From assembly GCA_044447065.1 (NCBI GenBank), contig JBIOFK010000001.1, positions 1 to 48,971 of the forward strand: 48,971 nucleotides of DNA, written 5' to 3'. Shown here in pieces: positions 14,393 to 38,301 of this stretch. The notes beneath the pieces are model-generated. The model was not told the origin of the DNA and searched no databases. It worked only from the letters and a program-made list of their open reading frames with translations. The position numbers and the translations under genes are program-made. Each line of letters opens with the position of its first letter. The first letter of the stretch is position 1. The DNA comes from Actinomycetales bacterium (GTDB lineage Bacteria; Actinomycetota; Actinomycetes; Actinomycetales; Micrococcaceae).

Positions 14393-15841
14393 TCAGTGGT
14401 TGTCGGTCGGGGAGGCCGACGGCGGGGCCGCCACCGGGCCGGCGCGGCGGGCGGCGATCTCGGCGACGATCTCCTTGTGCCTGGCGTCGGTCAGCGGGTA
14501 GATCAGCATGATGCCCAGGGCGAGCAGGGCGAAGATGAACGGCAGCAGGCCGGCGCCAGCCCGGATGCCCAGCAGGGCGTGCGCGCTCTGGACGTGGGCC
14601 GTGGAGGAATAGCCGCCCCAGGCCAGCGCATAGGCAGCGAGCGCGCCGCCGACGGCCTGTCCCGTCTTGCGGGTGAAGGAGAACAGCGCATAGGTGATCC
14701 CTTCGGTGCGGACGTGGGTCTTCCACTCCCCATACTCCACCGTGTCGGCCTCGAGCGCCCAGACGAGCATGTTCACCAGGATGATGCCGGCCTGGGTGAT
14801 GATGATGCCGGCGAAGGCCAGCGGCACCATCGACGCCGGGGCGAAGAAGACCATCAGCCCGCCAACGGCCATCAGGGCGGCGAAGGCGATGTAGCTCTTC
14901 TTCTTGCCGAACCTCTTCACCACGCGGGGCAGGAAGGCCGCGCCTCCGAAGGTCAGCACAATGTTGATGATGGAAATGACGGCGTACAGGCCCAGGGAGT
15001 GCAGGACGTCGCGGAAGTAGTAGATCTGCACTGTGGACAGGGCAAGGTAGCCGGTCAGGAACAGGAACGAGCTGATGCACAGCAGCAGCAGCGGCTTGTT
15101 GCCCTTCAGCGTCGCCAGGCTCTGCTTCATCGAGACCTTCGGGACTTCGCGGACCACCCGTTCCTTGGCCGTCGCGACGGTGAAGAAGTACAGCCCGGTG
15201 CCGAGCACTGCGAAAACGACCGTCAGGGTGGTGAACAGCGGCTGCAGGTTGACGCCGTGCACCATCAACGGGGCGATGAAAATGCCCAGGAAGGACCCGA
15301 CGGCAACGGCACCGATGGTGCGCGCGCTGGCGAGTTTGGCGCGCTCGGTGGCGACCTGGGTCATGGCCCCGGCCAGGGAGCCGTACGGGATGTTGACCAT
15401 ACTGTAGGCCAGCCCCAGCAGGGTGTAGCTGACGTAGGCCCAGATCAGCATCCCGGTCTGGCCGATCTGCGGGATCGAGAAACTGGCCACGCTGAGCAGC
15501 AGCAGCGGGATGGAGCCGAACATGATGAACGGGCGGAACTTGCCGAATTTCCTGCTGTAGGTCCTGTCCACCATGCGCCCGGCGAAAATGTCCGAGAACG
15601 CGTCGAAGATGCGCACCACCAGCAGCAGGGTTCCCGCCGCGGCGGCGCTGATGCCCGCCACATCCGTGTAATACAGCAGCAGGAACATCGTGGCGGTGGT
15701 GAAGGCCAGGTTGTTCGCTGCGTCGCCAGCCCCGTAACCCAGAATGCTGAGCTTGGGCAGCGGCGTGAGCGCCGCATTGGATTCCGCCGGGGTCGGTGCC
15801 GGTGCGGGGGCTATCGGTTCTTTCGATGCGGTCATGGCCAT
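14393..15841 (-). CDS. MFS transporter, glycoside-pentoside-hexuronide (GPH):cation symporter family
   Basis: ORF 14393..15841: [43 protein letters not shown] and [15 protein letters not shown] are the GPH signature region. AGGAG RBS. Confidence 0.88.
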
Positions 15842-15990: not shown

Positions 15991-16010
15991 TTTGGCAACC
16001 GTTTGCCAAA
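15991..16010. promoter_or_regulatory. LacI-type palindromic operator, copy 1 (TTTGGCAACCGTTTGCCAAA)
   Basis: It sits inside the 26-bp near-palindrome ATATTTGGCAACCGTTTGCCAAATAT, 150 nt upstream of the GPH transporter start. The same 20-mer family recurs at 18918, 27626 and 29761. Confidence 0.7.
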
Positions 16011-16065
16011 TATTCTTTCGGACCGCCCCGGAACGCGGATCCGCCGGCGGCGCGGGTGGGGCTTC

Positions 16066-17472
16066 TCAGCCGACCTGGGCGGGATTGAACGCCCCGACGG
16101 CCGCCTGCAGGCGCTCCACGAGGCCGGTGTTGAGTCCCAGCTCCGGATCCAGCAGGGACAGCAGCGCCGGGACATCACCGCCGTCGGGCTCGGCCAGGGC
16201 CCTGGCAATGCCCCCGGCCGCCGCGTCGGAGACCGGCCGGCCCTGGTCGCGGGCGGAGCGCAGGAAGGCGACCCAGGCGGCAATCAGGCGCAGGGCGCCG
16301 GCGCCGCTGCGGTCTGCGGCCAGTTCCGCCGTCAATACCGGCACGGCCCGCATCCGGAGTTTGCTGGATCCCTCCATGGCGATCTGGGCCAGGAAGTGGG
16401 CGATCCTGCTGTTGGAGAAACGGCCCAGCAGCGCCTCGCGATAGGCGGGAAGGCCGAGCCCGTCGGCGGGCAGGTGCCGTTCGGCCTCGTCCCAGAACTC
16501 ACCGATCCAGCTCCTGCATTCGGCGTCGCCGAGCGCCTCGGCGACGGTCTCGCAGCCGCGCAGCGAACCGGCGTAGGCCAGCAGCGAGTGGGCGCCGTTG
16601 AGCAGCCACAGCTTGCGGTTCTCGAACGGTTCGATGTCCTCGACAAAGGTGGCGCCGGCGGATTCCCAGTGCGGCCGCCCGGCCGGGAAGGAGCCGCTGA
16701 GGATCCAGTCCGTGAAGGGTTCGGTGACGACCGCGGCGTTGTCGAGGTAGCCGCCGCGGGCGGCGAGTTCCAGGTCGGCGTCGGTGGTGCGCGGGGTGAT
16801 CCGGTCCACGGAGGTTCCGACAAAACTGATATTGCCGTCGATCCAGGTGGCCAGCGCCGGGTCGGCCGCGGCCGCGAGATCGCGGACGGCGGTCCGGGCG
16901 GCAGCGGCGTTATTCGCGAGGTTGTCGCAGGAGACGACGGCCATCGGTCCCGCCCCGCTGCGACGGCGCTGAGCCAGCGCCTGCACCAGCCGGCCCGCCG
17001 CCGTCGTTGCCCATCGCGGCTCTGCGGCACTGGCGGCCACGGCGGCCCGCAGGATTTCGACGTCGGCCACCACAGCCGGCAGGGTGAAATCGACGCCGCC
17101 CGCCGCGGTGAGGTTGTAGGCCGGTTCGGTGATGGTGAGGGTCACGATGGCAGTGGATTCCGCGGCGACCAGGGCCGCGAGCCGGGCGACGTCGGCGCCG
17201 TCGTTCGCCTCCACGATGGAGTGGACGACCTCGAAGCTGTCCCCGCCCCCCGACCGTTCGATCAGCGTGTAGAGCCCGTCCTGGGCCGCCAGGGTCACCG
17301 CGGCGTCGGGCCGCCGTCCGGTGAAGGCCGCTATCCCCCAGCCGGCCGCGTCGGCGGCGTGCTGGGTGTACCACGCCTGGTGGGCGCGGTGGAACGCGCC
17401 GAGGCCGAGGTGGACGATGCGGATGGGCGGGACCGGTTCGGTACTGCGCCGGTGCAGCAGTGCCGCGCTCAC
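16066..17472 (-). CDS. uxuB: mannitol dehydrogenase family oxidoreductase (fructuronate reductase / D-mannonate oxidoreductase-like)
   Basis: ORF 16066..17472: IVHLGLGAFHRAHQAWYT, VSCDNL and NGAHSLLAY. The GTG start overlaps the uxaC stop (GTGA). Confidence 0.8.
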   Translation of the reverse strand: MSAALLHRRSTEPVPPIRIVHLGLGAFHRAHQAWYTQHAADAAGWGIAAFTGRRPDAAVTLAAQDGLYTLIERSGGGDSFEVVHSIVEANDGADVARLAALVAAESTAIVTLTITEPAYNLTAAGGVDFTLPAVVADVEILRAAVAASAAEPRWATTAAGRLVQALAQRRRSGAGPMAVVSCDNLANNAAAARTAVRDLAAAADPALATWIDGNISFVGTSVDRITPRTTDADLELAARGGYLDNAAVVTEPFTDWILSGSFPAGRPHWESAGATFVEDIEPFENRKLWLLNGAHSLLAYAGSLRGCETVAEALGDAECRSWIGEFWDEAERHLPADGLGLPAYREALLGRFSNSRIAHFLAQIAMEGSSKLRMRAVPVLTAELAADRSGAGALRLIAAWVAFLRSARDQGRPVSDAAAGGIARALAEPDGGDVPALLSLLDPELGLNTGLVERLQAAVGAFNPAQVG

Positions 17473-18890
17473 AGTTTGAAGGCCCTGCGCGGTGCGGCGT
17501 CGACGACGTCCACAATGATGGCGGCGGCCCGTTCCTCGGAGACCCGGCGTTCGGCGACCAGCCGGGCCAGGAAGCTAGCCTCGATGCGCCGGGACGTGTC
17601 GTGCCGCGCCGGGATGGAGCAGAACGCCCGGGTGTCGTCGATGAACCCGGAGGACCGGGAGAAACCCGCGGTCTCCGTCACGGCCGAACGGAACCGGAGC
17701 ATCGCGTCGGGGGCATCCAGGAACCACCAGGGCGCACCGATGAAGACGGACGGGTAGAAGCCGGCCAGCGGCGCGATTTCCCGGCTGAAAGCCGTCTCGT
17801 CAATGGTGAACGGAATGAGGTGGAACCCGGGGGCGGAGCCGAAGTCCTCCAGCAGCGGCCGCAGCCCGTTCGTGTAGTCCACGGCAAAGGGAATGTCGTG
17901 GCCCGTGTCGGGCCCGTAGGCCTCAAAGGTCGGCCGGTGGTGGTTGCGGGCAACGCCGGGATGGATTGTCATCACCAGTCCGTCCTCGGCGGACATCCGG
18001 GCCATCTGGTAGGTCATGTGCGCCTCGAAGATGTCGGCCTCGGCGGCTGTCGCCTCGCCGCGGCGGCCCTTGTCGAAGAGGTCTTGGGCGTCGGCGCCGT
18101 CCAGCCTGAGCGTCAGCGGCGCGCGCGTGCCGTGATCGGCGGAGACCGCCCCGTGCCCGATAAAGTACTGCCGGCGGTTGGCCAGGGCCCGGAGATAACC
18201 GGGAAAGCCTGCCTGCCCGTCGCCGGCCGCGGCGATGAGCCGCTCGACGTTGTCAGGGAATTCCGCATGGCCGAACTTGATGTAGGCGTCCGGGCGGAAG
18301 GTGGGCAGCACCCGGCCGGTAAAGTCCGCGTCGGCCGCGAGGGCCGCATGCGCGGCCAGGTCATCGAGCGGATCGTCGGTGGTGGCCAGGACTTCGATAT
18401 TGAAGTCGGTGAACAGGCGGCGGGGCCGGAACTCCGGCTCCGCCAGCCGGGCGCTCAGCGCGTCGTAGAGCGCGTCGGCCGCGGCGGCAGAGGGGTCGCG
18501 GTCCAGGCCGCTGAGGTCGAGGCGGAAGACGTGCTCGAATTCCTGCCGGATCCAGTAGCCGGAGGCCGTTCCGTCGAACGCCGGCCACGCCTTGCAGAAT
18601 TCCTGCCAGGCCACGCGCGGCTCGGCCGTCGGATTCGGTCCCATCCGCAGCCTGTCCAGCCCGACGCCGCCGGCGTGGATGAGCCGGGTGACGTAGTGGT
18701 CCGGAGTCACGAGCAGCGTGGCCGGGTCCGGGAACGGTGTGTCCTCCAGCAGCATGCGAGGATCGACGTGTCCGTGCGGCGAGAGGATCGGCAGCCGTTC
18801 CACGAGGCCAAAGAGGCTGCGGGCGATTTTCCTGGTGCCGGGATCCGCGGGCAGGAGCCTGTCCGGATCGGCTGCAATCGACTGTGACAT
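17469..18890 (-). CDS. uxaC: glucuronate isomerase
   Basis: ORF 17469..18890: LPILSPHGHVDP, VTPDHYVTRL, IHPGV and FIDDTRAF are typical UxaC blocks. Confidence 0.9.
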   Translation of the reverse strand: MSQSIAADPDRLLPADPGTRKIARSLFGLVERLPILSPHGHVDPRMLLEDTPFPDPATLLVTPDHYVTRLIHAGGVGLDRLRMGPNPTAEPRVAWQEFCKAWPAFDGTASGYWIRQEFEHVFRLDLSGLDRDPSAAAADALYDALSARLAEPEFRPRRLFTDFNIEVLATTDDPLDDLAAHAALAADADFTGRVLPTFRPDAYIKFGHAEFPDNVERLIAAAGDGQAGFPGYLRALANRRQYFIGHGAVSADHGTRAPLTLRLDGADAQDLFDKGRRGEATAAEADIFEAHMTYQMARMSAEDGLVMTIHPGVARNHHRPTFEAYGPDTGHDIPFAVDYTNGLRPLLEDFGSAPGFHLIPFTIDETAFSREIAPLAGFYPSVFIGAPWWFLDAPDAMLRFRSAVTETAGFSRSSGFIDDTRAFCSIPARHDTSRRIEASFLARLVAERRVSEERAAAIIVDVVDAAPRRAFKL

Positions 18891-18917: not shown

Positions 18918-18937
18918 TTTGTCAACCGGTTGCCAAA
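18918..18937. promoter_or_regulatory. LacI-type palindromic operator, copy 2 (TTTGTCAACCGGTTGCCAAA)
   Basis: 28 nt upstream of the uxaC start codon and 15 nt downstream of the LacI stop. One mismatch from a perfect palindrome. Confidence 0.7.
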
Positions 18938-18951: not shown

Positions 18952-20004
18952 CTATTTCGCGGGCGGCCGTCCCGTGGAACCCCGCAGCACGAGCGAGGTG
19001 ACCAGGGCGGCCGAGGGGAGCCGGCCGTGCGCCTCGTTGAGGTCGAGGAGAATACGCTGCAGGGCATCCTGGCCGGATTCATGCAGCGGCGAGCGGATGG
19101 TCGACAGGGGCGGAGTCGTGAAATCGGAACCGAAAATGTTGTCAAAACCCAAGATGCTCAGGTCGTCCGGTATGCGGATGCCGGCCAGCTGCAGTTCCTG
19201 CATGAGGCCGATGGCCATGAGGTCGTTATAGCAGAACACCGCGGTGGCGCCGCTGTCGAGCACGGCGGCGGCAGCCCGGCGTCCGCCGTCGAGCGTCGGC
19301 ACCCCGGAGGCGACCTCGCTCACTGTCAGGCCTGACCACCGGCAGCGGGCCTGGATGCTCTCCCAGCGCCGCGCCGACATCCAGGACCGTTCGGGTCCGG
19401 CAACATAGGCCACACAGCCGTGTCCCAGCGCCGCCAGATGGCGCACCGCGTCCGTGACCCCGACGTCGGTGTCCGCAACCACCGAATGCACGCCCTCGAC
19501 CAGGCGGTTGATGACGGAGACCGGCTTGTTCGCCGCGAGGTCCCGGATCTGCTGGTCCGACAGCCGGGGACTGGCAAGGATGATGCCGTCCACGGTGGCC
19601 AGCATGCGCCGGGCCGCGGTCAGCTCCGTGTCGGCAGATTCCGCGGACTCCGCGAGCACGAGGGTGTAGTCGCCGTCGGCGGCCGCCTGCTCGGCACCGC
19701 GGATCACGTCGAAATAGGCCGGGTTGGTGATGTCCGAAACGATCAGGCCGACGGTGCGGGTCCGGCCGGTCGGCAGGGCACGGGCAAAGACGTTCACCTG
19801 GTAGTTCAGCTCCGCGGCGGCGTCCTCGATGATCTTTTGCGTCTTGGCGCTCACCCTGCCGGGTTTCGTCAGGGCGCGGGACACGGTGGAGGGATTGACC
19901 CCGGCGAGCCTGGCGATGTCGTAGATGGTTGCCGCGGACTTGGCGCCGCGGACGGTTCCCTCCTCGGCGCCGGTCCCCGCCTGTGCCCTGCTGGTAGTGC
20001 TCAC
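18952..20004 (-). CDS. LacI family transcriptional regulator (LacI-1)
   Basis: Frame of ORF 18952..20034, with the start set at GTG 20004 (GGAGG 4 nt upstream). It has the HTH IYDIARLAGVNPSTVSRAL plus a periplasmic-binding-protein-like effector domain. Confidence 0.88.
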   Translation of the reverse strand: MSTTSRAQAGTGAEEGTVRGAKSAATIYDIARLAGVNPSTVSRALTKPGRVSAKTQKIIEDAAAELNYQVNVFARALPTGRTRTVGLIVSDITNPAYFDVIRGAEQAAADGDYTLVLAESAESADTELTAARRMLATVDGIILASPRLSDQQIRDLAANKPVSVINRLVEGVHSVVADTDVGVTDAVRHLAALGHGCVAYVAGPERSWMSARRWESIQARCRWSGLTVSEVASGVPTLDGGRRAAAAVLDSGATAVFCYNDLMAIGLMQELQLAGIRIPDDLSILGFDNIFGSDFTTPPLSTIRSPLHESGQDALQRILLDLNEAHGRLPSAALVTSLVLRGSTGRPPAK

Positions 20005-20044
20005 TCGTCCTCCACGTTCGTTGTCCCTCCACATCGTAGCCCGC

Positions 20045-20076
20045 GCCGGTCCGGCATTTTGCGGTGCCGGACCGGC
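20045..20076 (-). terminator. 12-bp perfect hairpin after the oxidoreductase gene
   Basis: GCCGGTCCGGCA-ttttgcgg-TGCCGGACCGGC, 50 nt downstream of the stop at 20126. Confidence 0.55.
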
Positions 20077-20125
20077 GGGCGGGCCGGCGGGCGGGAGCGG
20101 GACGGAGCGGGACGCGGCGGAACGG

Positions 20126-21292
20126 CTAGGCGCGCTCGGGGTACTTCCCTTCCTTGCGGATCCGCTGGTTCAGCAGTTCCAGGTATTCATCCTCGTCGAA
20201 GTCGAGCGGGACCTCGGCGCCCTTCCAGCTGGAGAGGTGGATGGCGTTGGCGAGCCGGACTCCGTTGATGCCGTCCGAGCCGGGGGCCAGCAGCGGCGTG
20301 CCGTCCAGGATGTTGGCGGCGAAATTCTCCAGCACGCCGGCATGCTGGGCGCCCCAGGCCGAGTCGAATTCGATGACCTCCTCGGTCAGGAAGTCGTCCA
20401 TGTCCAGCTGTCCGCGGAACAGCTTGCCCACGTCCTCCGGCCCCATGCTGTCGCTGAGTTCGCGTTCGGGCTTCTTCAGCCGTGTGACGGTGGCCCGTTT
20501 GCTCTCCTCCACGACAATCTTGCCCTGGTCGCCGAGGATCTCGAAGCGGTCCGTTCCTGTCAGGTCGTGGGTGGCGGTGACGAAGGTTCCGGTAACGCCG
20601 TTTCCATAGTCGACGACGGCGGTCACCTCGTCTTCCGTGGCGATGTCCCGGCGGAAGCCGTAGGAGACCTTGGCGAAGACCGACGTCGGTACTCCGCAGA
20701 TCCACTGCCAGAGGTCGAGCTGGTGCGGCGCCTGGTTGACGAGCACGCCGCCGCCTTCGCCGCCCCAGGTCGCGCGCCAGGCGCTCTGGTTGTAGTAGCC
20801 CTGCGGCCGCCACCAGGTGGTGATGATCCAGTTGGTCCGGCGGATCGCGCCGATTTCGCCGTTGTCGACGATCTCCTTCAGCCGCTTGTAGAGCGGGTTG
20901 TTCCGCTGGTTGAACATGATGCCGAAGGTCAGTTCCGGCTTCGTCGCCGCGAAGGCGTTGAGCTCCTTGACCTGCTTGGTGTACACGCCGGCAGGCTTCT
21001 CCACCAGCGCGTGGATGTTGTTCTTCAGCGCGGCAATGCCGATTTCCGGGTGCAGGTAGTGCGGAACGCAGGTGACGACGGCGTCCACGTCGCCGCTGGT
21101 GATCATGTCCAGGTAGTCGTCGTAAAACGGAACGTCCGGGTAGGTTCCGGCGGCCGCCGCCTTCTTGGCGGGGTCGGTGTCGCTGATGGCGCCGATAACC
21201 ATGTTGGGCACCTGGCCGCCGGTAATGAATCCGGCGTACATACTGCCCTGGGCGCCGAGGCCGATGATGCCGAGGCGGACTGGATTGCTCAT
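20126..21292 (-). CDS. Gfo/Idh/MocA family oxidoreductase (GFO-B)
   Basis: ORF 20126..21292: N-terminal Rossmann fold RLGIIGLGAQG, then EKP and the motif AWRATWGGEGGGVLVNQAPHQLDL of the GFO C-terminal domain. Confidence 0.88.
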   Translation of the reverse strand: MSNPVRLGIIGLGAQGSMYAGFITGGQVPNMVIGAISDTDPAKKAAAAGTYPDVPFYDDYLDMITSGDVDAVVTCVPHYLHPEIGIAALKNNIHALVEKPAGVYTKQVKELNAFAATKPELTFGIMFNQRNNPLYKRLKEIVDNGEIGAIRRTNWIITTWWRPQGYYNQSAWRATWGGEGGGVLVNQAPHQLDLWQWICGVPTSVFAKVSYGFRRDIATEDEVTAVVDYGNGVTGTFVTATHDLTGTDRFEILGDQGKIVVEESKRATVTRLKKPERELSDSMGPEDVGKLFRGQLDMDDFLTEEVIEFDSAWGAQHAGVLENFAANILDGTPLLAPGSDGINGVRLANAIHLSSWKGAEVPLDFDEDEYLELLNQRIRKEGKYPERA

Positions 21293-21338
21293 GATGGTAT
21301 CTCTTTCGTTGCTGGTTGGGGTGGAGGCGGGCCGGGTC

Positions 21339-22199
21339 CTAGAACAGGTCGCCGTGGCCGAGTGCCTTGAGATTGTCGTAGGAGGTCTGCAGCGCTTCCC
21401 AGACGGTGCGTCCGTACAGCTCGTCCTGCTCGACCAGGAGGTATTGCGCCCCGGCGGCTTTGGCTGCGGGGATGATGGACGCGAAGTCGAGGTTGCCCTC
21501 GCCGACCTCGGCGAACTGGACGACGTTGCGGAACTCGTTCATGAACGCCTGGAACTCGCCTTGCTCCAGTAGGGCGAATGCCGATTCGGGCAGCATGCCG
21601 ATCCGATAGTCCTTGAGGTGCACCATGGCGGTCCGGCCGGCGTACTTCTCGATCGTGCGCACGGGGTCCTGGCCGCCGCGCTGGACCCAGTGGACGTCGA
21701 TCTCCAGGCCTATATCGGGCGACTGGTCCGCGATGATGTCCAGCAGGTATTTGCCGTCAAATTTCGCGAACTCGATGTGGTGGTTGTGGTAGTACAGGCT
21801 GATGCCCTGGTCTTTCAGGCGGAGCGCGAAGTCGTTTGCCTGTTTGGCGAAGTCGATCACGGTGTCCACCGACTTCATGGCGGGGAACGGCAGCATGCCG
21901 ATGCGCAGCAGCGTGGTATCCAGCCGCCTGGCGTCGTCGACGATCTTGTCGAAGTCCTCGCGGAGCGAATCCCCCGGCCTGCCGACGGGTTTTTCGACCA
22001 TCACGGACAGGGCGGCGATGTCCACGCCCAGTTCGCTGCGGCTGCGGCCGAGCTCGGCGACGTTGTCCGCCGTCATCGGGATCTGCGAAATCTCCACAGC
22101 GTGGTAACCGATGTCCGTGACCTTACGCAGCGTCTCGAAGGCGCCGACCTCCGCGAAGCTGTCCTTGAGCATCATTGCCTGTACACCGATTGTTGCCAT
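21339..22199 (-). CDS. sugar phosphate isomerase/epimerase (xylose isomerase-like TIM barrel) (TIM-B)
   Basis: ORF 21339..22199: YHAVEIS, LYYHNHHIEF, IDVHW and VHLKD..EVGEGNLDF fit the AP-endonuclease-2/xylose-isomerase-like TIM-barrel metal-ligand pattern. Confidence 0.85.
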   Translation of the reverse strand: MATIGVQAMMLKDSFAEVGAFETLRKVTDIGYHAVEISQIPMTADNVAELGRSRSELGVDIAALSVMVEKPVGRPGDSLREDFDKIVDDARRLDTTLLRIGMLPFPAMKSVDTVIDFAKQANDFALRLKDQGISLYYHNHHIEFAKFDGKYLLDIIADQSPDIGLEIDVHWVQRGGQDPVRTIEKYAGRTAMVHLKDYRIGMLPESAFALLEQGEFQAFMNEFRNVVQFAEVGEGNLDFASIIPAAKAAGAQYLLVEQDELYGRTVWEALQTSYDNLKALGHGDLF

Positions 22200-22235
22200 G
22201 CTATTGGTCTCCTCTTGTGTGTTCGTCCGTGCCGG

Positions 22236-23134
<899 letters not shown>

Positions 23135-23138
<4 letters not shown>

Positions 23139-24982
23139 GATGAAACCTCCTCGGTCTGTCCTGCGGCGGTACCTGCGGCGACCAGCATGGTCATCGGTTC
23201 CTTACCCTCCAGCATGGAGTCCAGCAGCGTGCGGGTATAGGGGTCCGCGGGGTTGGACAGAATGTCCCGCACCGGGCCCTCCTCCACCAGCCTGCCGTTT
23301 TGCATGACGACGACGCGGTCACACAGATCCGCGACGACGCCGAAGTTGTGGGTCACCAGGACCACGCCCATCGTGTACCGGGCCTGCAGATCCCGCAGCA
23401 GATCCAGTACCTCCGCCTGCACGGTGACGTCCAGGGCTGTGGTGGGCTCGTCGGCGATCAGCAGGTCAGGATTGCAGCTGACCGCCCCGGCAATCAGGAC
23501 GCGCTGGGCCATACCGCCGGACACCTCATGCGGATAGGCCGCGAACGTCCGCTCCGGGTCGTTGATCCCCACAATGCCCAGCAGCTCCAGCGCCCGGGCC
23601 CTGGCCTGGCTGCGCGGGATTCCCAGCACCTTCACCATCGGACGGACCAGCTGGTGCCCGATAGTGAAATTAGGATCCAGGTTGCTCATCGGCTCCTGCG
23701 GAATGTAGGCGATGCGCTTCCCCCGCAGTGCCGCCATCCGTCCCTGCGAGAGGCGTCCGCCTTCCGCGGAGACGAGCGGGACCCCGTCAAAGACCACCGT
23801 GCCGCCGGTAATCTCCGCCTCGTCCGGCAACAGCCCGAGAATGGAGAACGCCGTCTGCGTCTTACCCGAACCGGATTCCCCCACAATGCCGAGCACTTCG
23901 CCACGGTCCACGTGCAGCGAAACGTCCGATACCACTGTTTTGATCCGGCCGCCGGGCTGCGGGTAGCCCACACCCAGCCCGGTGACCGTCAGCAGGTGCC
24001 CGGCCGAATCCGCGCCCGCACCGATACGCTCCGCACCCGTGTTGGTGTTGGCGCCGGTGGCGGCTTGGCTCGACGGACTCCGCCGGGCGCCCCGTTTGAT
24101 TTTTGCCGGCTTAGGTGAATCCTCCAACGCATCACGGAGAGCGTTGCCCAAGACGACGAAGGCCCCGATGGTCAGGGAAATAGCGATGGCCGGCCAGACC
24201 GCCAGAACCGGGCTGGTAAAGATGTTGATGAAGCCTTCGTTGAGCATCACGCCCCAGGTGGGAGTCTGCGGATCGCCCAGACCCAGGAATTCCAACGTGG
24301 CCTGGATGGAGATCGCGATGCCGCACACGATCGAGGTCTGGATGATCAGCGGCGCACGCACCACAAAGAGGATGTGACGGCCGATAATGCGTCCATTGCT
24401 CAGTCCCGCGACCCGGGCCGCGTCCACATAGAGTTCGTTGCGGACGGTCTGCACCGTGGTCCTGGTCAGCCTGAAAATCCCGGGGGACATCAGCACACCA
24501 AAGACGGTCATCGAAATCCACACGCTCTTGCCCAGCGCAGCACTGGCCGCCAACAGGATGATGATGGCCGGCAGGGACATCAGGACGTTGGTGAACCAAC
24601 TGGCCACCGAATCGAACCAGCCGCCGAAGAAGCCTGCCGTCAGCCCGGACGGAAGGCCGATGACCACCGCCACGGCCGCGGCAAGCGCCGCCGCGATCAG
24701 GGTGCTTCGAGCGCCCACGATCAGGCGGCTGAAGACGTCCCGGCCGGCACTGTCCGTGCCGAGCAGGTTCGCGCCGCCGGGGGTTTGCAGCGCAGTGCTC
24801 AGTGACGCATGGTTGGGGTCGAAGGGAGCCACGCAGGGTCCGATGATCGCCGCGATCACCATAATTGCCAGGAAAGTCACTGCAGCGACACCAAGCGGAT
24901 TACGCCACAGACGACGCAGGACGCCGCTTCGGGCGCTTTCTTCGAGCTGCTCGACTTTCAAGTTCGCAATAACGTCGGTCAT
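23135..24982 (-). CDS. fused ABC transporter permease (DppC/OppC-like) and ATP-binding (DppD/OppD-like) protein
   Basis: Frame of ORF 23135..25009, with the start at ATG 24982 (ATGA overlap with the upstream permease stop). The N-terminal ~290 aa are a multi-TM permease (LWRNPLGVAAV...). The C-terminal ~300 aa carry GESGSGKTQ, VSGGMAQRV, LLIADEPTTALD and DPYTRTLL. Confidence 0.88.
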
Positions 24983-25920
24983 GACACACGCGCCTTCGGA
25001 TTCAGCCAACCGACCACGAGGTCGACCAGCAGATTGACGATCACAACGATCAGGACGATGTACACCACAACGCCCATCAGTACGGGCATATCGCCCTGGG
25101 TCGTGGACTGCAGCGCCAAAAACCCCATCCCCGGCAGCGCGAAGATCTGCTCAATCACCACCACTCCGCCGAGCATGTTGATGAACTGCAGCGACAGGAC
25201 GGTCAACCCGGCCGGAGCGGCGCCGCGGAGCACGTGCCGGAAAAGGACCTCCCGCGGTGACAGTCCCCGGCTGCGCAAGGTGCGGACGTAGTCCTTCGAC
25301 AGCACCCCGATGGTCGCACTGCGCACCTGCTGCGCGGTGGAGGCAATCGCTCCGATCGCCAGCGCCACGACGGGCAGCACCAGCGATCCTGCCCAGCCGC
25401 CCGGGCTGTCACCCAGCGGGATATACCCGGTGGCAGGGAACCAGTGCAGGCTGATGGCAAACACCGTCACCACGACGATGGCGATCACAAACTGCGGAAC
25501 TGCGGCCCCGGCAATCGAAACCACCTGAAGCACCCGGTCCACCCAGCCGCGGCGCACGGCCGCGGCAATGCCAATCAGGGTGGAGAGAACGGCGACGATG
25601 ACGATGGTGACAACCACCACCGAAAGGGTCGTGGGCAGCCGGTCCAGAATGCTGCCGACCACCGGCTGGCTCGTGAACCAGGATGCGCCGAAGTCCCCGT
25701 GGACGATTCCGCCGAGCCAGTGCAGATAACGGCTCACCAGCGGCTGGTCCAGGCCCAGCTCAATCTGCTTCTGATGAACCTGCGCCTGGGTCGCGGTCTC
25801 GCCCAGGATATTGCGGGCAACATCGGTGGCGGAGAAGTACAAGAGGAAGAACGTCAACGTCGAGACGACGAAGAGAACAACAACACCGGAAACAATCCGG
25901 CGAATGATAAAGGAAACCAT
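24979..25920 (-). CDS. ABC transporter permease, DppB/OppB-like
   Basis: ORF 24979..25920: MVSFIIRRIVSGVVVLFVVSTLTFFL and the EAA-type loop region ...DYVRTLRSRGLS.... Confidence 0.9.
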   Translation of the reverse strand: MVSFIIRRIVSGVVVLFVVSTLTFFLLYFSATDVARNILGETATQAQVHQKQIELGLDQPLVSRYLHWLGGIVHGDFGASWFTSQPVVGSILDRLPTTLSVVVVTIVIVAVLSTLIGIAAAVRRGWVDRVLQVVSIAGAAVPQFVIAIVVVTVFAISLHWFPATGYIPLGDSPGGWAGSLVLPVVALAIGAIASTAQQVRSATIGVLSKDYVRTLRSRGLSPREVLFRHVLRGAAPAGLTVLSLQFINMLGGVVVIEQIFALPGMGFLALQSTTQGDMPVLMGVVVYIVLIVVIVNLLVDLVVGWLNPKARVS

Positions 25921-25985
25921 TTCTGCTCCGTAGTCAGCTGGTTCAGCAGGCCGCTGGGGTCCCGCAGCAGCGGGACCCCACCGAG

Positions 25986-27527
25986 CTACTTCTTTGGCGC
26001 GTAGTTATAGATAGAAGGAACAGCCTGCCGGGCCTGTGGGACCGTGGTGGTGTTCTTATCCGTGAAGAAGGTGAAGTCCGGCCGGTAGAACGGCGCGAAC
26101 CAGGCCTGGTCGGTGATGTACTTGTTCAGGTCCTTGGCGGCCTGGGCCTGGTCCGACTCGGTGCCCTTCTGGACCGCGTCGATGAACGAGGCGACCTTCG
26201 GGTCAGTCGTGTGGAACGGGTTGTAGGTCGCATTGGGGGTAAGGATCTGGTTGGCCGCCGTCCACGGGGAGCCTTGGAAGAGGGAGAACCATGCCACGGA
26301 CCACTTGCCCTGGATCATGCTGGAAATGAAGTCCGCCGCAGCTACATTCACCCAGTCGACCTTGATGCCCACATCGGAGAGGTTCTGGCCAATGCCGGCA
26401 GTCAGGGCCGGATCCATAAAGCCGGCCACGTTCGGCATGCTGACCGTGAAGCCGCTGCCGAAGCCCGCATCGGCCAGCAGTTTCTTGGCCTTGGCCGGAT
26501 CATACGGGTAGGCGCTGTCAAGGGTCTTGTCGTAGGCATCCGTGGTGGTGCCGAAGACCTGGCTGGTGGTGGTGCCCAGCCCCTTGGCGACCTGCTTGAG
26601 CAGGGAGTCCTTGTCAATGGCGTAGTTGATGGCCTGGCGGACGCGGACATCTTTCAGCGCAGGAACCATCTTGCCGTCCCGGTCATAGAACAGCAGACCC
26701 TGCCAGTCGGTGCCGAACTTGTATTCGGTCATACCGGCGTTCTTGGCCTGTGCCTCCGACTTGGCCGTCACCGTGGCGGCGTTGACCTGGCCCGACAGCA
26801 AGGCGTTCAGCGTCGCGGTGGTGTCCGTAATCGGTTTGACGACGATCTTGTCATAGACCTGCAGGGAGGGGTCCCAGTAGTCCTTGCTCTTGACGAAGGT
26901 ATAGGTGGAACCGGCCACCGTAGCCGAGGCATCCAGGGTGTAGGGTCCGCTGCCGACCGGAGCCGTGGCAATCTTGCCGGCGTCAATCGCTTTGGGGCTG
27001 GCAATGAAGCCGTCCGCGTTGGCCAGGTTGTCCAACAGCGAGGGATCCGGAGCCTTGAGCGTGAGTACGACCGTCGCGGGATCCTTGACGTCGACGCTTT
27101 GGACCAGCGCGATAGTGGAGGCATCAGGACCGTTACCGGTGCGGAAACGGTCAAGGTTGATCTTGACGGCGTTGGCATCAAGGGTGGTCCCGTCGCTGAA
27201 CTTCACGCCGCTCCGTAGGCTGAGCGTCAGCACGGTCTTGTCTGTGTTGTACTCCCATTTCGTTGCCAGCATGGGCACCAGGGAACCGTCCGGCTTCCTG
27301 CGCATCAGCGAATCGTAGACCGGCTGGTCGTACTGGAGATAGTGGCCAATGTGGGCCTGTGCCGGGTCGAACGACTTCACATCGACCAGGGCCGCAAGTG
27401 TCAGCGTGCCGCCGTGTGCCTGGCTCCCGCCGGGCGCGCCAGCATTGGAGCCGCCGCCGCAGGCGGACAGCGCGAGAGTGGCTGCCGCGAATGCCGCAAC
27501 AACTGCGGCTTTTGGACCTAACTTCAT
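25986..27527 (-). CDS. ABC transporter substrate-binding lipoprotein, family 5 (peptide/nickel/oligosaccharide type)
   Basis: ORF 25986..27527: lipobox LALSAC, then a typical SBP_bac_5 layout (LVPMLATKWEY..D..V.TL.LR.GVKFSDG, GSGPY). AGGAG RBS. Confidence 0.9.
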   Translation of the reverse strand: MKLGPKAAVVAAFAAATLALSACGGGSNAGAPGGSQAHGGTLTLAALVDVKSFDPAQAHIGHYLQYDQPVYDSLMRRKPDGSLVPMLATKWEYNTDKTVLTLSLRSGVKFSDGTTLDANAVKINLDRFRTGNGPDASTIALVQSVDVKDPATVVLTLKAPDPSLLDNLANADGFIASPKAIDAGKIATAPVGSGPYTLDASATVAGSTYTFVKSKDYWDPSLQVYDKIVVKPITDTTATLNALLSGQVNAATVTAKSEAQAKNAGMTEYKFGTDWQGLLFYDRDGKMVPALKDVRVRQAINYAIDKDSLLKQVAKGLGTTTSQVFGTTTDAYDKTLDSAYPYDPAKAKKLLADAGFGSGFTVSMPNVAGFMDPALTAGIGQNLSDVGIKVDWVNVAAADFISSMIQGKWSVAWFSLFQGSPWTAANQILTPNATYNPFHTTDPKVASFIDAVQKGTESDQAQAAKDLNKYITDQAWFAPFYRPDFTFFTDKNTTTVPQARQAVPSIYNYAPKK

Positions 27528-27625
27528 CGTTGGCTCCTGTTTTCGTGAGTAGAAGTGCCGGTAAGACGAGAATGTGTCTTACGACACATCAACCTCTGGA
27601 AATTAGAATACCGTCGTTGGCATCA

Positions 27626-27645
27626 TTTGGCAACCGATTGTCAAA
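27626..27645. promoter_or_regulatory. LacI-type palindromic operator, copy 3 (TTTGGCAACCGATTGTCAAA)
   Basis: 99 nt upstream of the SBP start. It is flanked by extra half-site-like TTGGCA (27617-27622) and TGACAA (27650-27655). Confidence 0.65.
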
Positions 27646-27742
27646 AGAATGACAATGAATTTCTTTTCCAACGAGCTATGCCCAGTGTTTAGCCGGTATT
27701 CGGAACTCGGGAAGGCGGCATCCGGCTGCCGCGCACCGCCTG

Positions 27743-28750
27743 TCAGCTGACGATATCGCCCAGGTCCGGGTAGTTCTGGCGGTAGAGATCCTTGATGATG
27801 AACAGCGATTTGGCGGCTTCGGCCGGGTCGATCCAGAACGCTCCCGGGGCCTGGAGCTGCGCATAGAAGTCCCTGATCAGCAGTTCATGGGACGCTCCCC
27901 AGTAGGCCCGCCAGCCGGCCTTGGCCGCGCGTTCCGGCACGACCTCGATGCGGCCGTCGGCGTATCGGACTGTCAGGTCGCCGGACAGGCTGAGCACGGC
28001 CTCCTCGGTCACGACCTCGAGGGTGACCGGGGAGTTGACGACATTCGCCAGCGTGGCGTAAAAGACGCTGCGGGCGCCGTTCGCATGGTCCAGCACCAGC
28101 TCTGCGGTGTCCTCGACCTCGATGGCGTCCCCCAGGACATGGGTCGCCGTCCGCCCGGTGACAGCACTCACCTCGCCCACCAGCCACTGCAGCAGGTCCA
28201 GCGTATGGATGGCCTGGTTCATCATCAGGCCCCCGCCCCCGTCGGCCCAGGTGCCGCGCCACGGGCTGCTGCGGTAATAGTCGGCCGTGCGGGTCCACTT
28301 AACAGTGGCGGAGCAGCCCAGCACGGCACCCAGAGTCCCGCCGGCCAGCAGCTCGTACATGGCCTGCGAGGTCGCGTTGTAGCGGTTTTGAAAACAGACC
28401 GCGATCTTCGCGGTGCTGCGCGCTGCCGCCTCGATCACCCGCCGCCCGTCGGCCGCGGTGGAGGCCAGCGGCTTTTCCGTCAGGACGTTCACCCCGGCGT
28501 CGAGGGCGTCCACGGCAAGGGCCGCGTGCTGCGAATGCGGGGTGCAAAGGTGGACCACGTCCGGCCGTACCGAGCTGAGCAGCTCCCGATGGTCGGCGAA
28601 GCCGGGTACTCCGTACCGGGCTGACGCCGCCGCCAGCCTGCCGCCGTCGACGTCGCAGACCGCCACCAATTCGGCGTCGGCGATGTTCTCCACCGCCTCG
28701 AAATGGACACTGGACACGTCGCCGCAACCGATGATTGCCACCCTGGTCAT
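27743..28750 (-). CDS. Gfo/Idh/MocA family oxidoreductase (GFO-A)
   Basis: Frame of ORF 27743..28771, with the start at ATG 28750 (GGAGAA RBS). RVAIIGCGDV, TEKPL and PWRGTWADGGGGLMMNQAIHTLDLL are present. Confidence 0.88.
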   Translation of the reverse strand: MTRVAIIGCGDVSSVHFEAVENIADAELVAVCDVDGGRLAAASARYGVPGFADHRELLSSVRPDVVHLCTPHSQHAALAVDALDAGVNVLTEKPLASTAADGRRVIEAAARSTAKIAVCFQNRYNATSQAMYELLAGGTLGAVLGCSATVKWTRTADYYRSSPWRGTWADGGGGLMMNQAIHTLDLLQWLVGEVSAVTGRTATHVLGDAIEVEDTAELVLDHANGARSVFYATLANVVNSPVTLEVVTEEAVLSLSGDLTVRYADGRIEVVPERAAKAGWRAYWGASHELLIRDFYAQLQAPGAFWIDPAEAAKSLFIIKDLYRQNYPDLGDIVS

Positions 28751-28832
28751 GCGTTCTCCTTCCGCGGGCACCGTCGCCCGTCCCTGCGTGCTGGCCGCCG
28801 GAAGCCCGGCGGCACCTACGTTGGCGTGCAGC

Positions 28833-29684
28833 CTAGGACAGCCGCACGCCGATTCGGTCGGTCAGGACCCGGAAGGCCCGCGCGGCCTCGCCGAACGCCA
28901 TCGGCCCGGAAAAACCACCGAGTTCATGGGCGCTGGCCAGATGGGGCTCCAACGACGCGAAGCCGGTGTAGCCGTCGTCGCGCAGGGCCGTCAGGGTCTC
29001 CAGGAGTTCTCCGTCGCCGTGTCCGGCTGGAACGACGTCCCCCGTAGCGGCCACGGCATCCTTGACCTGCAGGTATTCGAGGTACGGCCGGAGCAGGGCA
29101 TAGGCCTCGCTGAACGGCTTGGTCCCGACCTGGACGAAATTGGCGTTGTCCCAGGCGGCACGCAGCGCCGGCGAGTCCACGGACTCCAGCAGGTCCAGGA
29201 CCCGTTCGGGGGTGTCCCCATAGATGTCTTTCTCGTTCTCGTGCAGCAGGACGACGCCGGCCGCTTCGGCTTCCGCGGCCAGCAGCCTCAGCCGCTCAAT
29301 CACCGCGTCCCTGACGTCCGCCGGCTGCTGGCCCTCGGCGGGATAGAAGGAAAAAATCCGGATATAGCGGGCGTCCAAGGCCTTGGCGACGGCGATGACT
29401 CTGCGCAACCGCTCCACTTCGTGGCTGGGCGGGAGGCTGGCCGGGACCTTTCCGATGGGACTGGCAACGGCCGAAACCGCGAGGCCGGCGCCATCGAGGA
29501 TGGACTTCAGTTCCGCCACCCGGGACGGTTCCAGCTCGACGACGTTGATCCCCCAGGCGCTGCGCACCTCGATGTGACTTGCCCCCAGCGCCAGCAGCAC
29601 CGCGGCCTGTACCGCGGGGTCCGGATCCACCTCGTCGCCGAATCCGGACAGTGTCCAGCTAACGTCTCGGTTGGCAGTCATCAT
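28833..29684 (-). CDS. sugar phosphate isomerase/epimerase (xylose isomerase-like TIM barrel) (TIM-A)
   Basis: Frame of ORF 28833..29843, with the start at ATG 29684 (GGAGG RBS). IEVRS, YIRIFSF, LLHENEKD, YLQVKD and ASLEPH follow the TIM-barrel family pattern. Confidence 0.85.
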   Translation of the reverse strand: MMTANRDVSWTLSGFGDEVDPDPAVQAAVLLALGASHIEVRSAWGINVVELEPSRVAELKSILDGAGLAVSAVASPIGKVPASLPPSHEVERLRRVIAVAKALDARYIRIFSFYPAEGQQPADVRDAVIERLRLLAAEAEAAGVVLLHENEKDIYGDTPERVLDLLESVDSPALRAAWDNANFVQVGTKPFSEAYALLRPYLEYLQVKDAVAATGDVVPAGHGDGELLETLTALRDDGYTGFASLEPHLASAHELGGFSGPMAFGEAARAFRVLTDRIGVRLS

Positions 29685-29760: not shown

Positions 29761-29780
29761 TATGACAACCGATTGCCAAA
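29761..29780. promoter_or_regulatory. LacI-type palindromic operator, copy 4 (TATGACAACCGATTGCCAAA)
   Basis: Lies in the divergent region: 77 nt upstream of the TIM-A start and 123 nt upstream of the LacI-2 start. Confidence 0.65.
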
Positions 29781-29902: not shown

Positions 29903-30931
29903 ATGGCAGTGCCAGTAAGCTCCGCCCCCGATAGGCCCGCGACCATCCATGACGTGGCCGCCCTGTCCGGAGTGGCCGCGTCCACCGTTTCGCGGGCCCT
30001 GTCCACCCCGCAGCGGGTGAACTTCCGCACCCGCCTGCGGATCGAGGAGGCCGCGGCCCGGTTGAACTACATCCCGAACTCGCAGGCCAAAGCCCTGAGT
30101 TCCGGCCGGACCGGCGCCGTTGCCGTGCTGGTCGCCGACATTACGAACCCGTTCTTTTTCGACATCATCCGCGGCGCACAGCTCCAGCTCAAGGCCGCCG
30201 GCTACACCCAGTTGCTGGTGGACACCGAGGAATCCGGCGAGGTGGAGGCATCCACCCTGGAGCAGCTGCGCCGGAGCGCCGACGGGGTGATCCTGACCGC
30301 CTCCAGGCTCAGCGATGAGGCCCTGTCCATCGCCGCAACCAAGATTCCCCTGGTGACCATTAATACGGAAATCCCCGGCGTGGCTTCGGTGGTGCTGGAT
30401 ACGCCGTCGGCCACGAACCAGGCCCTTGATCACCTGATGTCACTGGGACACCGCCGGATTGCCTACATTGCGGGCCCGGACGCGTCACGGTCCAACCAGC
30501 GACGGTGGACGGCGCTGTCCGCAGCCGCCGAGGAACGCCAGGTGCAGATCACCCGGTTGGGCGGCTTCTCGCCGCGGACGTATTCCGGCGCCGCGGCAGC
30601 GGATGCGGCCGTGCACAGCGGCGTCAGCGCGTGCATCGTCTTCAACGACCTGATCGCCATCGGCATGCTGCAGCGGCTGCGGGAGCGCGGGGTCGCCGTG
30701 CCGGCGGAGATGTCGATCGTGGGCTGCGACGACATTTTCGGCTCGGACTTCTGCAGCCCTCCCCTGACCACCGTGACGGCGCCGGTGGAGCAGGCCGGGC
30801 GGACGGCGGTGACGCTGCTGCTGAGCCAGCTCAAACCCGGCGTGGGCAACGACAGGCGGCACCTCGCCGTGTTGCCGACCCACCTGACGATCCGTGGTTC
30901 AACGGGCCCGGCCCCTGACACAAGGACGTAA
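29903..30931 (+). CDS. LacI family transcriptional regulator (LacI-2)
   Basis: ORF 29903..30931: HTH IHDVAALSGVAASTVSRALS plus a sugar-binding-type effector domain. GAGGAG RBS. Confidence 0.9.
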   Translation: MAVPVSSAPDRPATIHDVAALSGVAASTVSRALSTPQRVNFRTRLRIEEAAARLNYIPNSQAKALSSGRTGAVAVLVADITNPFFFDIIRGAQLQLKAAGYTQLLVDTEESGEVEASTLEQLRRSADGVILTASRLSDEALSIAATKIPLVTINTEIPGVASVVLDTPSATNQALDHLMSLGHRRIAYIAGPDASRSNQRRWTALSAAAEERQVQITRLGGFSPRTYSGAAAADAAVHSGVSACIVFNDLIAIGMLQRLRERGVAVPAEMSIVGCDDIFGSDFCSPPLTTVTAPVEQAGRTAVTLLLSQLKPGVGNDRRHLAVLPTHLTIRGSTGPAPDTRT

Positions 30932-33468: not shown

Positions 33469-33535
33469 CCCAACTGGGTCGCAGATAACGCAGCTAAAAC
33501 CGGTCTAAACGGGCATTATCTGCGACCCAGTTGGG
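33469..33535. terminator. perfect 20-bp inverted repeat with 27-nt loop between convergent genes
   Basis: CCCAACTGGGTCGCAGATAA (33469-33488) pairs with TTATCTGCGACCCAGTTGGG (33516-33535). The right arm overlaps the last 6 codons and the stop of LacI-3. Confidence 0.55.
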
Positions 33536-38266: not shown

Positions 38267-38301
38267 TGAGATTGTGATGCTAAGCAAGCATCCGATCGGC
38301 G

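Follow-up and report, generated by a model that had tools for sequence, protein, structure and literature searches.

A probable glucuronide-utilisation regulon in Micrococcaceae built around a P2B11-type, non-hydrolytic glucuronidase

Contig JBIOFK010000001.1, from a member of the Micrococcaceae, carries a block of eight genes, all on the minus strand (positions 20126-29684 of the 49-kb stretch analysed here, which we call the window), encoding two TIM-barrel proteins (TIM-A and TIM-B), two dehydrogenases of the Gfo/Idh/MocA family (GFO-A and GFO-B) and an ATP-binding cassette (ABC) importer of the Opp/Dpp type. From what can be observed of its gene content, homology, residue conservation, operator sites and synteny, we consider it likely that the locus is a glucuronide-utilisation regulon in which cleavage is the work of a P2B11-type glucuronidase that is cytoplasmic and non-hydrolytic ('non-Koshland'). 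P2B11 is a clone from a gut fosmid library that was found by a thioglycoside screen (Nasseri et al. 2024, bioRxiv 10.1101/2024.03.25.586180; Nature 2024). Its genes Iso1, Oxido1, Oxido2 and Iso2 jointly cleave α- and β-glucuronides, and not glucosides, by C3 oxidation followed by 1,2-elimination, hydration and reduction; Oxido1 and one or more of the Iso enzymes are needed for activity, which Mn2+ and Co2+ stimulate (bioRxiv 10.1101/2024.03.25.586180). The block and the two regulator genes beside it are laid out as follows.

29903..30931, plus strand: LacI1, LacI-family regulator, divergent from TIM-A (Pfam LacI and Peripla_BP_3)
28833..29684, minus strand: TIM-A, metal-dependent xylose-isomerase-like TIM barrel, homologue of P2B11 Iso1 (Pfam AP_endonuc_2)
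27743..28750, minus strand: GFO-A, homologue of P2B11 Oxido2 (Pfam GFO_IDH_MocA plus C-terminal domains)
25986..27527, minus strand: family-5 (cluster C) solute-binding lipoprotein, SBP (Pfam SBP_bac_5; lipobox LSAC/GGGS)
24979..25920, minus strand: DppB-type permease (Pfam BPD_transp_1_N and BPD_transp_1)
23135..24982, minus strand: fusion of DppC permease and DppD-type ATPase, DppC::DppD (Pfam OppC_N, BPD_transp_1, ABC_tran, oligo_HPY)
22236..23138, minus strand: DppF-type ATPase (Pfam ABC_tran and oligo_HPY)
21339..22199, minus strand: TIM-B, homologue of P2B11 Iso2 (PDB matches 8BVK, 8TCT, 8TCS, 8TCD)
20126..21292, minus strand: GFO-B, orthologue of P2B11 Oxido1 by its sequence (PDB match 8TDI)
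18952..20034, minus strand (shorter reading 18952-20004): LacI2, LacI-family regulator (Pfam)

The four enzymes and the P2B11 glucuronidase

In a search of PDB sequences GFO-B matched over its full length, with E = 1e-148, the crystal structure 8TDI, 'P2B11 Glucuronide-3-dehydrogenase'. We recovered the P2B11 cluster itself as contig L081, through a protein 99% identical to the rebuilt 8TDI sequence; the contig has the four P2B11 genes in their published order, and the protein termini fit the cloning primers in the supplementary information of that work. BLASTP of the window enzymes against this contig gave clean one-to-one best matches.

GFO-B to P2B11 Oxido1: 58.7% identity
TIM-B to P2B11 Iso2: 47.6% identity
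GFO-A to P2B11 Oxido2: 38.0% identity over 324 amino acids
TIM-A to P2B11 Iso1: 40.0% identity over 245 amino acids

Between themselves, TIM-A and TIM-B show no significant BLASTP similarity, and GFO-A and GFO-B share only 30% identity. An earlier note on this DNA had described two paralogous enzyme pairs around the importer; because the matches to P2B11 are one-to-one and the supposed paralogues so dissimilar, the 'pairs' are better read as a predicted single four-component, non-hydrolytic glucuronidase that the transporter divides, and not as close paralogues. The note had also found no characterised pathway to which the enzymes could be assigned, and had named close orthologues with a defined substrate as grounds for giving up its reading; the matches to P2B11, at 59, 48, 38 and 40% identity, come near to that case. 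Judged from homology, the enzyme core is of an already known, recently described type, and the eight genes appear to be a soil-actinobacterial copy of the four-enzyme system of 2024. What endures of the earlier interpretation is its chemistry class, in which a GFO enzyme makes a keto-sugar on which a TIM-barrel enzyme then acts (supported by the homology to P2B11, OGE, AL1 and BT1, with TIM-B as the eliminase), and its view that the substrate is not a plain monosaccharide, with a uronide among the candidates: the P2B11 match and the glucuronate genes described below support a glycoside. A search for primary literature beyond Nasseri et al. on glucuronide 3-dehydrogenase, non-Koshland glucuronidases and glucuronide ABC transport found none.

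Residue conservation points the same way for the two enzymes most similar to their P2B11 counterparts. GFO-B keeps all six active-site residues of Oxido1 (Asn147, Trp179, Arg181, Tyr185, Asn205 and His209), which are invariant in 82 sequences, the window protein among them, and it is predicted to be a glucuronide 3-dehydrogenase orthologous to Oxido1. TIM-B has as its best solved relative OGE (8BVK, E = 5.6e-23, a partial alignment covering residues 74-198 and 225-259), and its other solved relatives are the AL1/BT1 3-keto-β-glucoside 1,2-lyases (8TCT, 8TCS, 8TCD). Its residues H138, H140, D168, W171, H194 and E257 align with the metal ligands and catalytic glutamate of AL1, BT1 and OGE, and none of the H-x-H, D-x-x-W, H and E positions varies among 74 orthologues. 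On these grounds TIM-B is assigned, as a prediction, to the metal-dependent 3-keto-glycoside 1,2-lyases (β-eliminases) of the OGE/AL1/BT1 type.

The other two enzymes can be placed less closely. GFO-A and Oxido2 have five of the six Oxido1 active-site residues in common, and GFO-A is predicted to be an auxiliary NAD-dependent 3-dehydrogenase/reductase. Its best PDB matches are 3Q2I and 3Q2K, which may be WlbA UDP-GlcNAcA 3-dehydrogenases and are given no weight as evidence here; DgpA is a distant match (E = 9e-26). TIM-A belongs to a separate TIM-barrel subfamily in which 62 sequences without exception carry HENE, D179, K208-D209 and E246-P-H248. Its motif set (HENE, D179, Q206, E246) differs from that of TIM-B and is common to Iso1 save for Q in place of H; residue 206 is Gln in all 44 actinobacterial TIM-A orthologues and His in Iso1 and the Bacillota proteins. 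An ortholog-profile search of the PDB returned remote matches only (AsbF, Art22, tagatose epimerase and IolI), the best being the keto-dependent dehydratase AsbF with E = 1.8e-11, and a structure-based assignment was abandoned because these matches are too remote. TIM-A is a candidate second 3-keto-glucuronide lyase and/or glycal hydratase.

Pairs of GFO and TIM-barrel enzymes are known from other pathways to interconvert free uronates or keto-sugars through a 3-keto intermediate while leaving any glycosidic bond intact, as in YcjS/YcjR or IolG/IolI, and the remote matches of the TIM-A profile to tagatose 3-epimerase and IolI would suit such a role. We think it very unlikely here. Aglycone release from glucuronides was demonstrated for the homologous P2B11 enzymes, the closest solved relatives of TIM-B are β-eliminases or lyases and not epimerases, and the window proteins fall well below the equivalog cut-offs for IolG (97 and 105 bits vs 355) and IolE (46.5 vs 290). 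In the same NCBIfam comparison the identities IolG, IolE, LgdA, BT_2158/2159, FrlC and UDP-GlcNAc 3-dehydrogenase were all rejected, with scores far under cut-off.

The scores for IolG, IolE and FrlC also remove the ground from the opine, Amadori and cyclitol substrates that had been among the earlier candidates. Catabolism of such a conjugate or cyclitol would find an echo in the opine binders AgaA and MoaA, which occur among the distant structural matches of the SBP, and in a very weak match of TIM-A to fructoselysine 3-epimerase (28.7 bits vs cut-off 305). It is nonetheless extremely improbable, given that the window contains by Pfam no genes of opine, Amadori or inositol pathways, that the regulon is tied to glucuronate genes, and that all four enzymes have counterparts in a glucuronide-cleaving system.

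Gene calls in the block

All eight co-directional ORFs (open reading frames) of the earlier note were recovered, and Pfam supports every domain call, as it does for the divergent LacI gene at 29903 and for the second LacI gene. The two ATGA overlaps that had been noted agree with the ORF coordinates and with a Met as the tenth residue of the long DppCD ORF. The DppC::DppD fusion is genuine, since it is found as a single unbroken match with 98% query coverage in 24 other genomes. For TIM-A and GFO-A the shorter readings, which start at ATG 29684 and ATG 28750 respectively, fit the homologue alignments, and the longer GTG ORF of TIM-A is disfavoured because it would cross the promoter and operator. 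A signal peptide was found on none of TIM-A, GFO-A, TIM-B and GFO-B; cleavage would therefore be cytoplasmic and follow import.

Glucuronate genes and a common operator

Downstream of the block, beyond LacI2, lie genes that the earlier reading of this context had overlooked, as it had the operator that they have in common with the block.

17469..18890, minus strand: UxaC, glucuronate isomerase (NCBIfam NF002794, 534 bits vs cut-off 387)
16066..17472, minus strand: mannitol-dehydrogenase-family reductase, UxuB-like (Pfam Mannitol_dh N and C domains)
14393..15841, minus strand: GPH-family glucuronide:cation symporter of UidB/GusB type (NCBIfam NF007353 'glucuronide transporter', 578 bits vs 528)
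13135..14364, minus strand: ManD, D-mannonate dehydratase, enolase superfamily (NCBIfam NF043051, 691 bits vs 550)
10856..13138, minus strand: fusion of gluconokinase (GntK/IdnK-type) and glycoside hydrolase family 3 (GH3), gluconokinase::GH3 (Pfam SKI/AAA_33 and Glyco_hydro_3; TIGR01313, 189 bits vs 114)

The UxuB-like reductase scores 240 bits against the NCBIfam fructuronate reductase cut-off of 603, a family-level match, and is a candidate fructuronate reductase as read from its gene context. Because UxaC, the UxuB-like reductase, the symporter and ManD are adjacent and have the operator in common, we take the class of sugar released to be glucuronate. The gluconokinase::GH3 fusion is the last gene of the symporter/ManD operon. 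It is kept full-length in Micrococcaceae, and its two parts are separate genes in Microbacteriaceae. The absence of glycoside hydrolases and kinases remarked upon earlier is correct for the eight genes and does not extend to the regulon, which includes this fusion (10856-13138); Pfam found no glucuronidase of families GH2, GH67 or GH115 in the window. The GH3 part may possibly trim an aglycone sugar, and the fusion hints at a gluconate-yielding branch, for example from glycosyl-aldonates. In contigs L086 and L087 a 6-phosphogluconate dehydrogenase gene adjoins the separate GH3 and kinase genes.

We searched the whole window, allowing up to two mismatches, for the 16-bp LacI-type palindrome TGRCAANCGGTTGYCA. 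Exactly four sites were found against 0.23 expected, one ahead of each of four transcription units, and none elsewhere in the 49 kb. They are listed here without strand.

29763..29778: operator O1, TGGCAATCGGTTGTCA, before TIM-A in the region divergent to LacI1, overlapping the -35 of a promoter-like site at 29768-29740 (minus strand)
27628..27643: operator O2, TGACAATCGGTTGCCA, before the SBP gene, overlapping the -35 of a promoter-like site at 27633-27605 (minus strand)
18920..18935: operator O3, TGGCAACCGGTTGACA, upstream of UxaC
15993..16008: operator O4, TGGCAAACGGTTGCCA, upstream of the glucuronide symporter

The overlap of O1 and O2 with -35 hexamers comes from a promoter scan. Most loci of Micrococcaceae and Microbacteriaceae have the operator at these four positions, and Tomitella and Dactylosporangium possess it too. 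LacI1 and LacI2 are 42% identical. Among the loci compared LacI1 is confined to the Micrococcaceae versions, and LacI2, which goes with the operator in different families, occurs in loci that retain the operators without LacI1. Since it accompanies the operators where LacI1 is missing, LacI2 is most likely the cognate repressor, possibly together with LacI1.

As O1 and O2, with their promoter-like sites, precede TIM-A and the SBP gene, the eight genes probably form two transcription units, TIM-A/GFO-A and SBP through GFO-B. No operator or promoter-like site of their own was found for TIM-B and GFO-B, and the gap between DppF and TIM-B is 36 bp. Two RNA structures are predicted within or after the second unit.

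25951..25984, minus strand: stem-loop between the SBP and DppB genes (-31 kcal/mol, z = -5.35), probably an intra-operon mRNA stabiliser
20041..20079, minus strand: GC-rich hairpin after GFO-B (-32.7 kcal/mol, z = -5.27), the likely end of the SBP-to-GFO-B transcript

Hairpins 3' of TIM-A and GFO-A folded no better than shuffled sequence, and no terminator is claimed there.

The Dpp-type importer and its cargo

The importer fits the Opp/Dpp/Nik (PepT-type) plan, with a family-5 SBP, DppB and DppC permeases and two oligo_HPY ATPases, DppC and DppD being fused. From its genomic context, this importer most likely carries glucuronides or related acidic glycosides. In Tomitella cavernea (contig L083) a cassette of the same clade, whose SBP is 58% identical, is followed by LacI, UxaC, UxuB and a GH2 gene; the N-terminal 193 residues of the GH2 protein score 247 bits against the β-glucuronidase equivalog, and the regulon operator stands ahead of the SBP, LacI and UxaC genes. 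In Dactylosporangium (L082, 10001-17778) the cassette lies ahead of a TIM-B-like lyase and a pyranose-oxidase-like GMC oxidoreductase, and in two Microbacteriaceae loci it is embedded in the four-enzyme system. The Tomitella region (L083, 10001-21533) also encodes a 508-amino-acid protein without a family match.

An ordinary peptide or nickel importer, inserted by chance and functionally unlinked to the enzymes, is what the database names would suggest, for these read 'peptide/nickel transport system' throughout the SBP clade. The best NCBIfam matches are likewise components of nickel, glutathione and oligopeptide systems, and the cassette is missing in some related loci. We give this explanation very little weight. 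The SBP does not reach the NCBIfam equivalog cut-off for any peptide, nickel or glutathione binder (NikA 137/393, GsiB 124/594, DppA 66/1005 and OppA 58/947 bits). The cassette carries its own regulon operator over a promoter-like site, and this operator is kept in different genera, on whichever side of GFO-B the cassette lies; TIM-B and GFO-B, lacking an operator or promoter-like site of their own, begin only 36 bp after DppF. The cassette also stays beside glycoside-cleaving genes in Tomitella, Dactylosporangium and Microbacteriaceae.

A link to the glucuronidase does not make the transporter a fixed part of it. Depending on the locus the cassette is absent, or lies before or after GFO-B, and the transporter is on this account a mobile accessory to the conserved enzyme core. 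Two divergent SBP types occupy the same slot (about 50% vs 65-92% identical). In the window the importer is a mosaic: SBP, DppB and DppCD are 69-85% identical to Microbacteriaceae versions (L006, L014) and 44-65% to Arthrobacter versions, whereas for the flanking enzymes, LacI2 and UxaC the Arthrobacter versions are the more similar, with the switch near the DppCD/DppF boundary (mosaic stretch ~23100-27530). The GC content, which ranges over ~0.61-0.73 along this high-GC window, falls to 0.61-0.64 over 24-28 kb, the region of the mosaic transporter. Contig L084, from Logan, has the same transporter mosaic at 90-95% identity.

Distribution of the oxidative system

We scanned one genome per species and found, among 600 matched stretches, at least 587 that encode a GFO-B relative; protein clusters at E <= 1e-100 number more than 4,000. 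The window proteins were then placed on the best 80 of these at least 587 loci. In 72 of the 80 TIM-B lay within 10 kb of the GFO-B relative, and all four enzymes were present in 48. A UxaC, UxuB or ManD gene was found in 57 of the 80 loci, a symporter in 38 and the Dpp cassette in 23-25. Bacillota loci have the order TIM-A, GFO-B, GFO-A, TIM-B, which is the P2B11 order. The exact gene order of the window was seen in at least 15 genomes of Arthrobacter, Pseudarthrobacter and Paenarthrobacter and in one metagenomic contig, and because the same order recurs in so many genomes we do not attribute the arrangement to chance. In four relatives no transporter is present and TIM-A, GFO-A, TIM-B and GFO-B form one contiguous run, and in several Microbacteriaceae the cassette sits after GFO-B. 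A look-up of the exact GFO-B sequence of the window gave no match on record; Arthrobacter livingstonensis, A. psychrolactophilus and a Logan contig provide the nearest relatives among the matches listed. As judged from these homologues, the oxidative glucuronide system is common in soil Actinomycetota and Bacillota. One contig (L086) has a second GFO-B-like gene after DppF (15303-16457; 79% identical to the window GFO-B) and so has two Oxido1-type dehydrogenases, the extra copy being additional to the one that follows GFO-A.

Proposed pathway and its significance

In the pathway that we propose, glucuronides would enter through the family-5 SBP/DppB/DppC::DppD/DppF importer, with the UidB-type symporter working in parallel. 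GFO-B, using bound NAD+, would oxidise C3 of the glucuronosyl residue; TIM-B, as a Mn/Co-dependent lyase, would take the C2 proton and eliminate the aglycone, giving a 2-hydroxy-3-keto-glycal, and TIM-A may serve as a second lyase and/or a hydratase. Hydration of the glycal would yield 3-keto-glucuronate, to be reduced to D-glucuronate either at the expense of NADH retained by GFO-B or through GFO-A; because the NADH of the oxidation step, or GFO-A, supplies this reduction, the cycle would be redox-neutral. UxaC, the UxuB-like reductase and ManD would then convert glucuronate to 2-keto-3-deoxygluconate (KDG). A LacI-type repressor, likely LacI2 and possibly LacI1 as well, would control the four units through the 16-bp palindrome at the -35. 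C3 oxidation, elimination and the cleavage of both α- and β-glucuronides have been published for homologues 48-59% identical to the window proteins; the transport substrate, the hydratase, the reductase and the identities of repressor and inducer are what we infer.

Several observations weigh against this reading. The published P2B11 enzymes also cleave 6-phospho-, 6-sulfo- and sulfoquinovosides, if slowly (bioRxiv 10.1101/2024.03.25.586180), and 38-59% identity to them allows for an altered sugar specificity; in TIM-A the predicted metal-site residue 206 is Gln where P2B11 Iso1 has His. The predicted structure of the SBP is confident (predicted local distance difference test, pLDDT, 89), and a fold search gave relatives no more than 26% identical. 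These nearest solved SBPs bind peptides, glutathione, nickel chelates, opines, sialic acid or chitin oligomers, and with ligands so mixed we abandoned the attempt to read the SBP ligand from sequence or fold. A member of the SBP clade (62% identical; L085, 10001-17090) adjoins a sulfatase in a locus with neither the uronate genes nor the operator. Among related Micrococcaceae loci about one in four is without the ABC cassette, which is to that extent accessory. A simple route from glucuronide to glucuronate leaves the co-regulated gluconokinase::GH3 fusion unexplained, and neither KDG kinase (KdgK) nor 2-keto-3-deoxy-6-phosphogluconate (KDPG) aldolase (KdgA) was found in the window. The sulfatase in L085 is accompanied by an FGE-sulfatase protein.

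In a rival reading the chemistry would be the same and the cargo of the importer would be other C6-anionic or acidic oligosaccharides, such as glucuronoxylan aldouronates, fragments of exopolysaccharide or arabinogalactan capped by glucuronic acid (GlcA), or sulfated or sulfonated glycosides, with GH3 trimming the remainder. The acceptance of 6-sulfo-, 6-phospho- and sulfoquinovosides by the P2B11 enzymes and the linkage of a related SBP cassette to a sulfatase are in keeping with this, as is a GH3 gene that adjoins the cluster not only in the window but also in the P2B11 contig and Microbacteriaceae loci; the two divergent SBP types suggest that the aglycones or oligomers recognised differ. 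The presence of UxaC, UxuB and ManD, linked to the enzymes under a common operator, nevertheless indicates that glucuronate is released, and in Tomitella the importer is paired with a β-glucuronidase. We judge such a cargo unlikely, though not negligibly so, and it overlaps with glucuronide utilisation as proposed above, the aglycone being the only difference.

Beyond the proposal of a glucuronide-utilisation regulon we put forward, with slightly less than even confidence, a broader one: that glucuronides or other acidic glycosides would for the first time have a 'peptide-type' importer of their own in SBP_bac_5/DppBCDF; that this importer would belong to a LacI regulon extending across several Actinomycetota orders, with a cleavage module that could be exchanged among the four-enzyme NAD-dependent oxidative system, a GMC oxidase with a lyase, and a classical GH2 β-glucuronidase; and that these Micrococcaceae would cleave glucuronides mainly or solely by the oxidative route. 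If so, the host would have access to α- and β-linked glucuronides alike, possibly including hydrolase-resistant ones. Four elements appear to be new as predictions from the sequences compared: the link of a family-5 ABC importer to an oxidative glucuronidase, the operator-defined regulon that would join this glucuronidase to glucuronate catabolism, the apparent exchange of oxidative, GMC-oxidase and GH2 modules beside one transporter clade, and the breadth of distribution in soil Gram-positive bacteria. No literature was found on the importer link, the regulon, the module exchange or the soil distribution. Previously the glucuronide-specific non-Koshland system was represented by one gut fosmid, which was characterised in vitro. 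The present locus and its relatives add a physiological frame, namely uptake (ABC importer and symporter), an operator with its repressor, and a hand-off to glucuronate catabolism. They also point to a new substrate class for family-5 importers, which are usually annotated 'peptide/nickel', and offer genetically tractable hosts for finding the natural glucuronides of the pathway.

Other features of the window

Elsewhere in the window, a third LacI gene lies beside a CUT1-type sugar ABC system (SBP_bac_1 and two permeases; 33516-38196, minus strand) that has no regulon operator. The region 38200-40100 has a GC content of 0.73 and long ORFs on both strands with no Pfam match. At 6315-8474 (minus strand) is encoded a 719-amino-acid protein with a pro-kumamolisin activation domain, probably a secreted protease of sedolisin type and unrelated to the locus.

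Comparison with known systems

The closest known system is that of P2B11, from a Collinsella-like gut bacterium, which has the same complement of four enzymes, the same conserved Oxido1 and lyase residues and the same cytoplasmic location. Its authors saw 'no apparent nearby transporter/regulator' (bioRxiv 10.1101/2024.03.25.586180), yet in contig L081 (4325-10162) we find GH3, an MFS_2/GPH transporter and UxaC beside the four enzymes, a further likeness to the window. The two differ in gene order, which is TIM-A, GFO-A, the ABC importer, TIM-B, GFO-B in the window and Iso1, Oxido1, Oxido2, Iso2 in P2B11, and in the inserted family-5 importer, two LacI genes, four-site operator regulon and ManD of the window. 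They differ also in residue 206 of the Iso1-type enzyme (Gln in TIM-A, His in Iso1) and in host, a high-GC soil-type member of the Micrococcaceae as opposed to a gut member of the Coriobacteriia.

The systems AL1-AL4 of Alistipes and BT2156-2160 of Bacteroides thetaiotaomicron also have a Gfo/Idh/MocA enzyme that holds NAD tightly and oxidises C3, followed by 1,2-elimination by a TIM barrel, hydration and reduction, and TIM-B is homologous to AL1 and BT1. Unlike the system described here they work in the periplasm on glucosides and mannosides, with a DUF1080 lyase/hydratase. Pfam finds no DUF1080 protein in the window, which has the second TIM barrel TIM-A instead, and the window proteins score 22-41 bits against BT_2158/BT_2159 equivalog cut-offs of 650-750. 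OGE of Agrobacterium tumefaciens (8BVK), with which the catalytic motifs of TIM-B align, acts on flavonoid 3-keto-O-glucosides and has a different oxidising partner (PMC10628242).

More distant still are DgpA/DgpBC, CarA/CarBC, LgdA/LgdB, IolG/IolE and YcjS/YcjR, which belong to the same superfamilies and follow the same logic of oxidation followed by elimination or isomerisation. Their matches are far weaker than those to P2B11, and their partner subunits or downstream genes are absent from the window. The equivalog for LgdA, of levoglucosan catabolism, is not reached (56.6 and 84.9 bits vs 650), nor are those for IolG and IolE, of myo-inositol catabolism, at the scores given above.

The gus/uxa/uxu system of E. 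coli comprises the GH2 β-glucuronidase UidA, the symporter UidB, and UxaC, UxuB and UxuA. The window resembles it in glucuronide import, in the expected release of glucuronate and in the isomerase pathway, with proteins that score above the UidB and UxaC equivalog cut-offs. It differs in that cleavage would be oxidative and eliminative with no GH2, that ManD stands in place of UxuA, that there is an extra ABC importer, and that the regulators are LacI-type, whereas those of E. coli are the TetR-type UidR and the GntR-type UxuR/ExuR. Tomitella, which has this transporter together with a GH2 protein, is intermediate between the window and the E. coli type.

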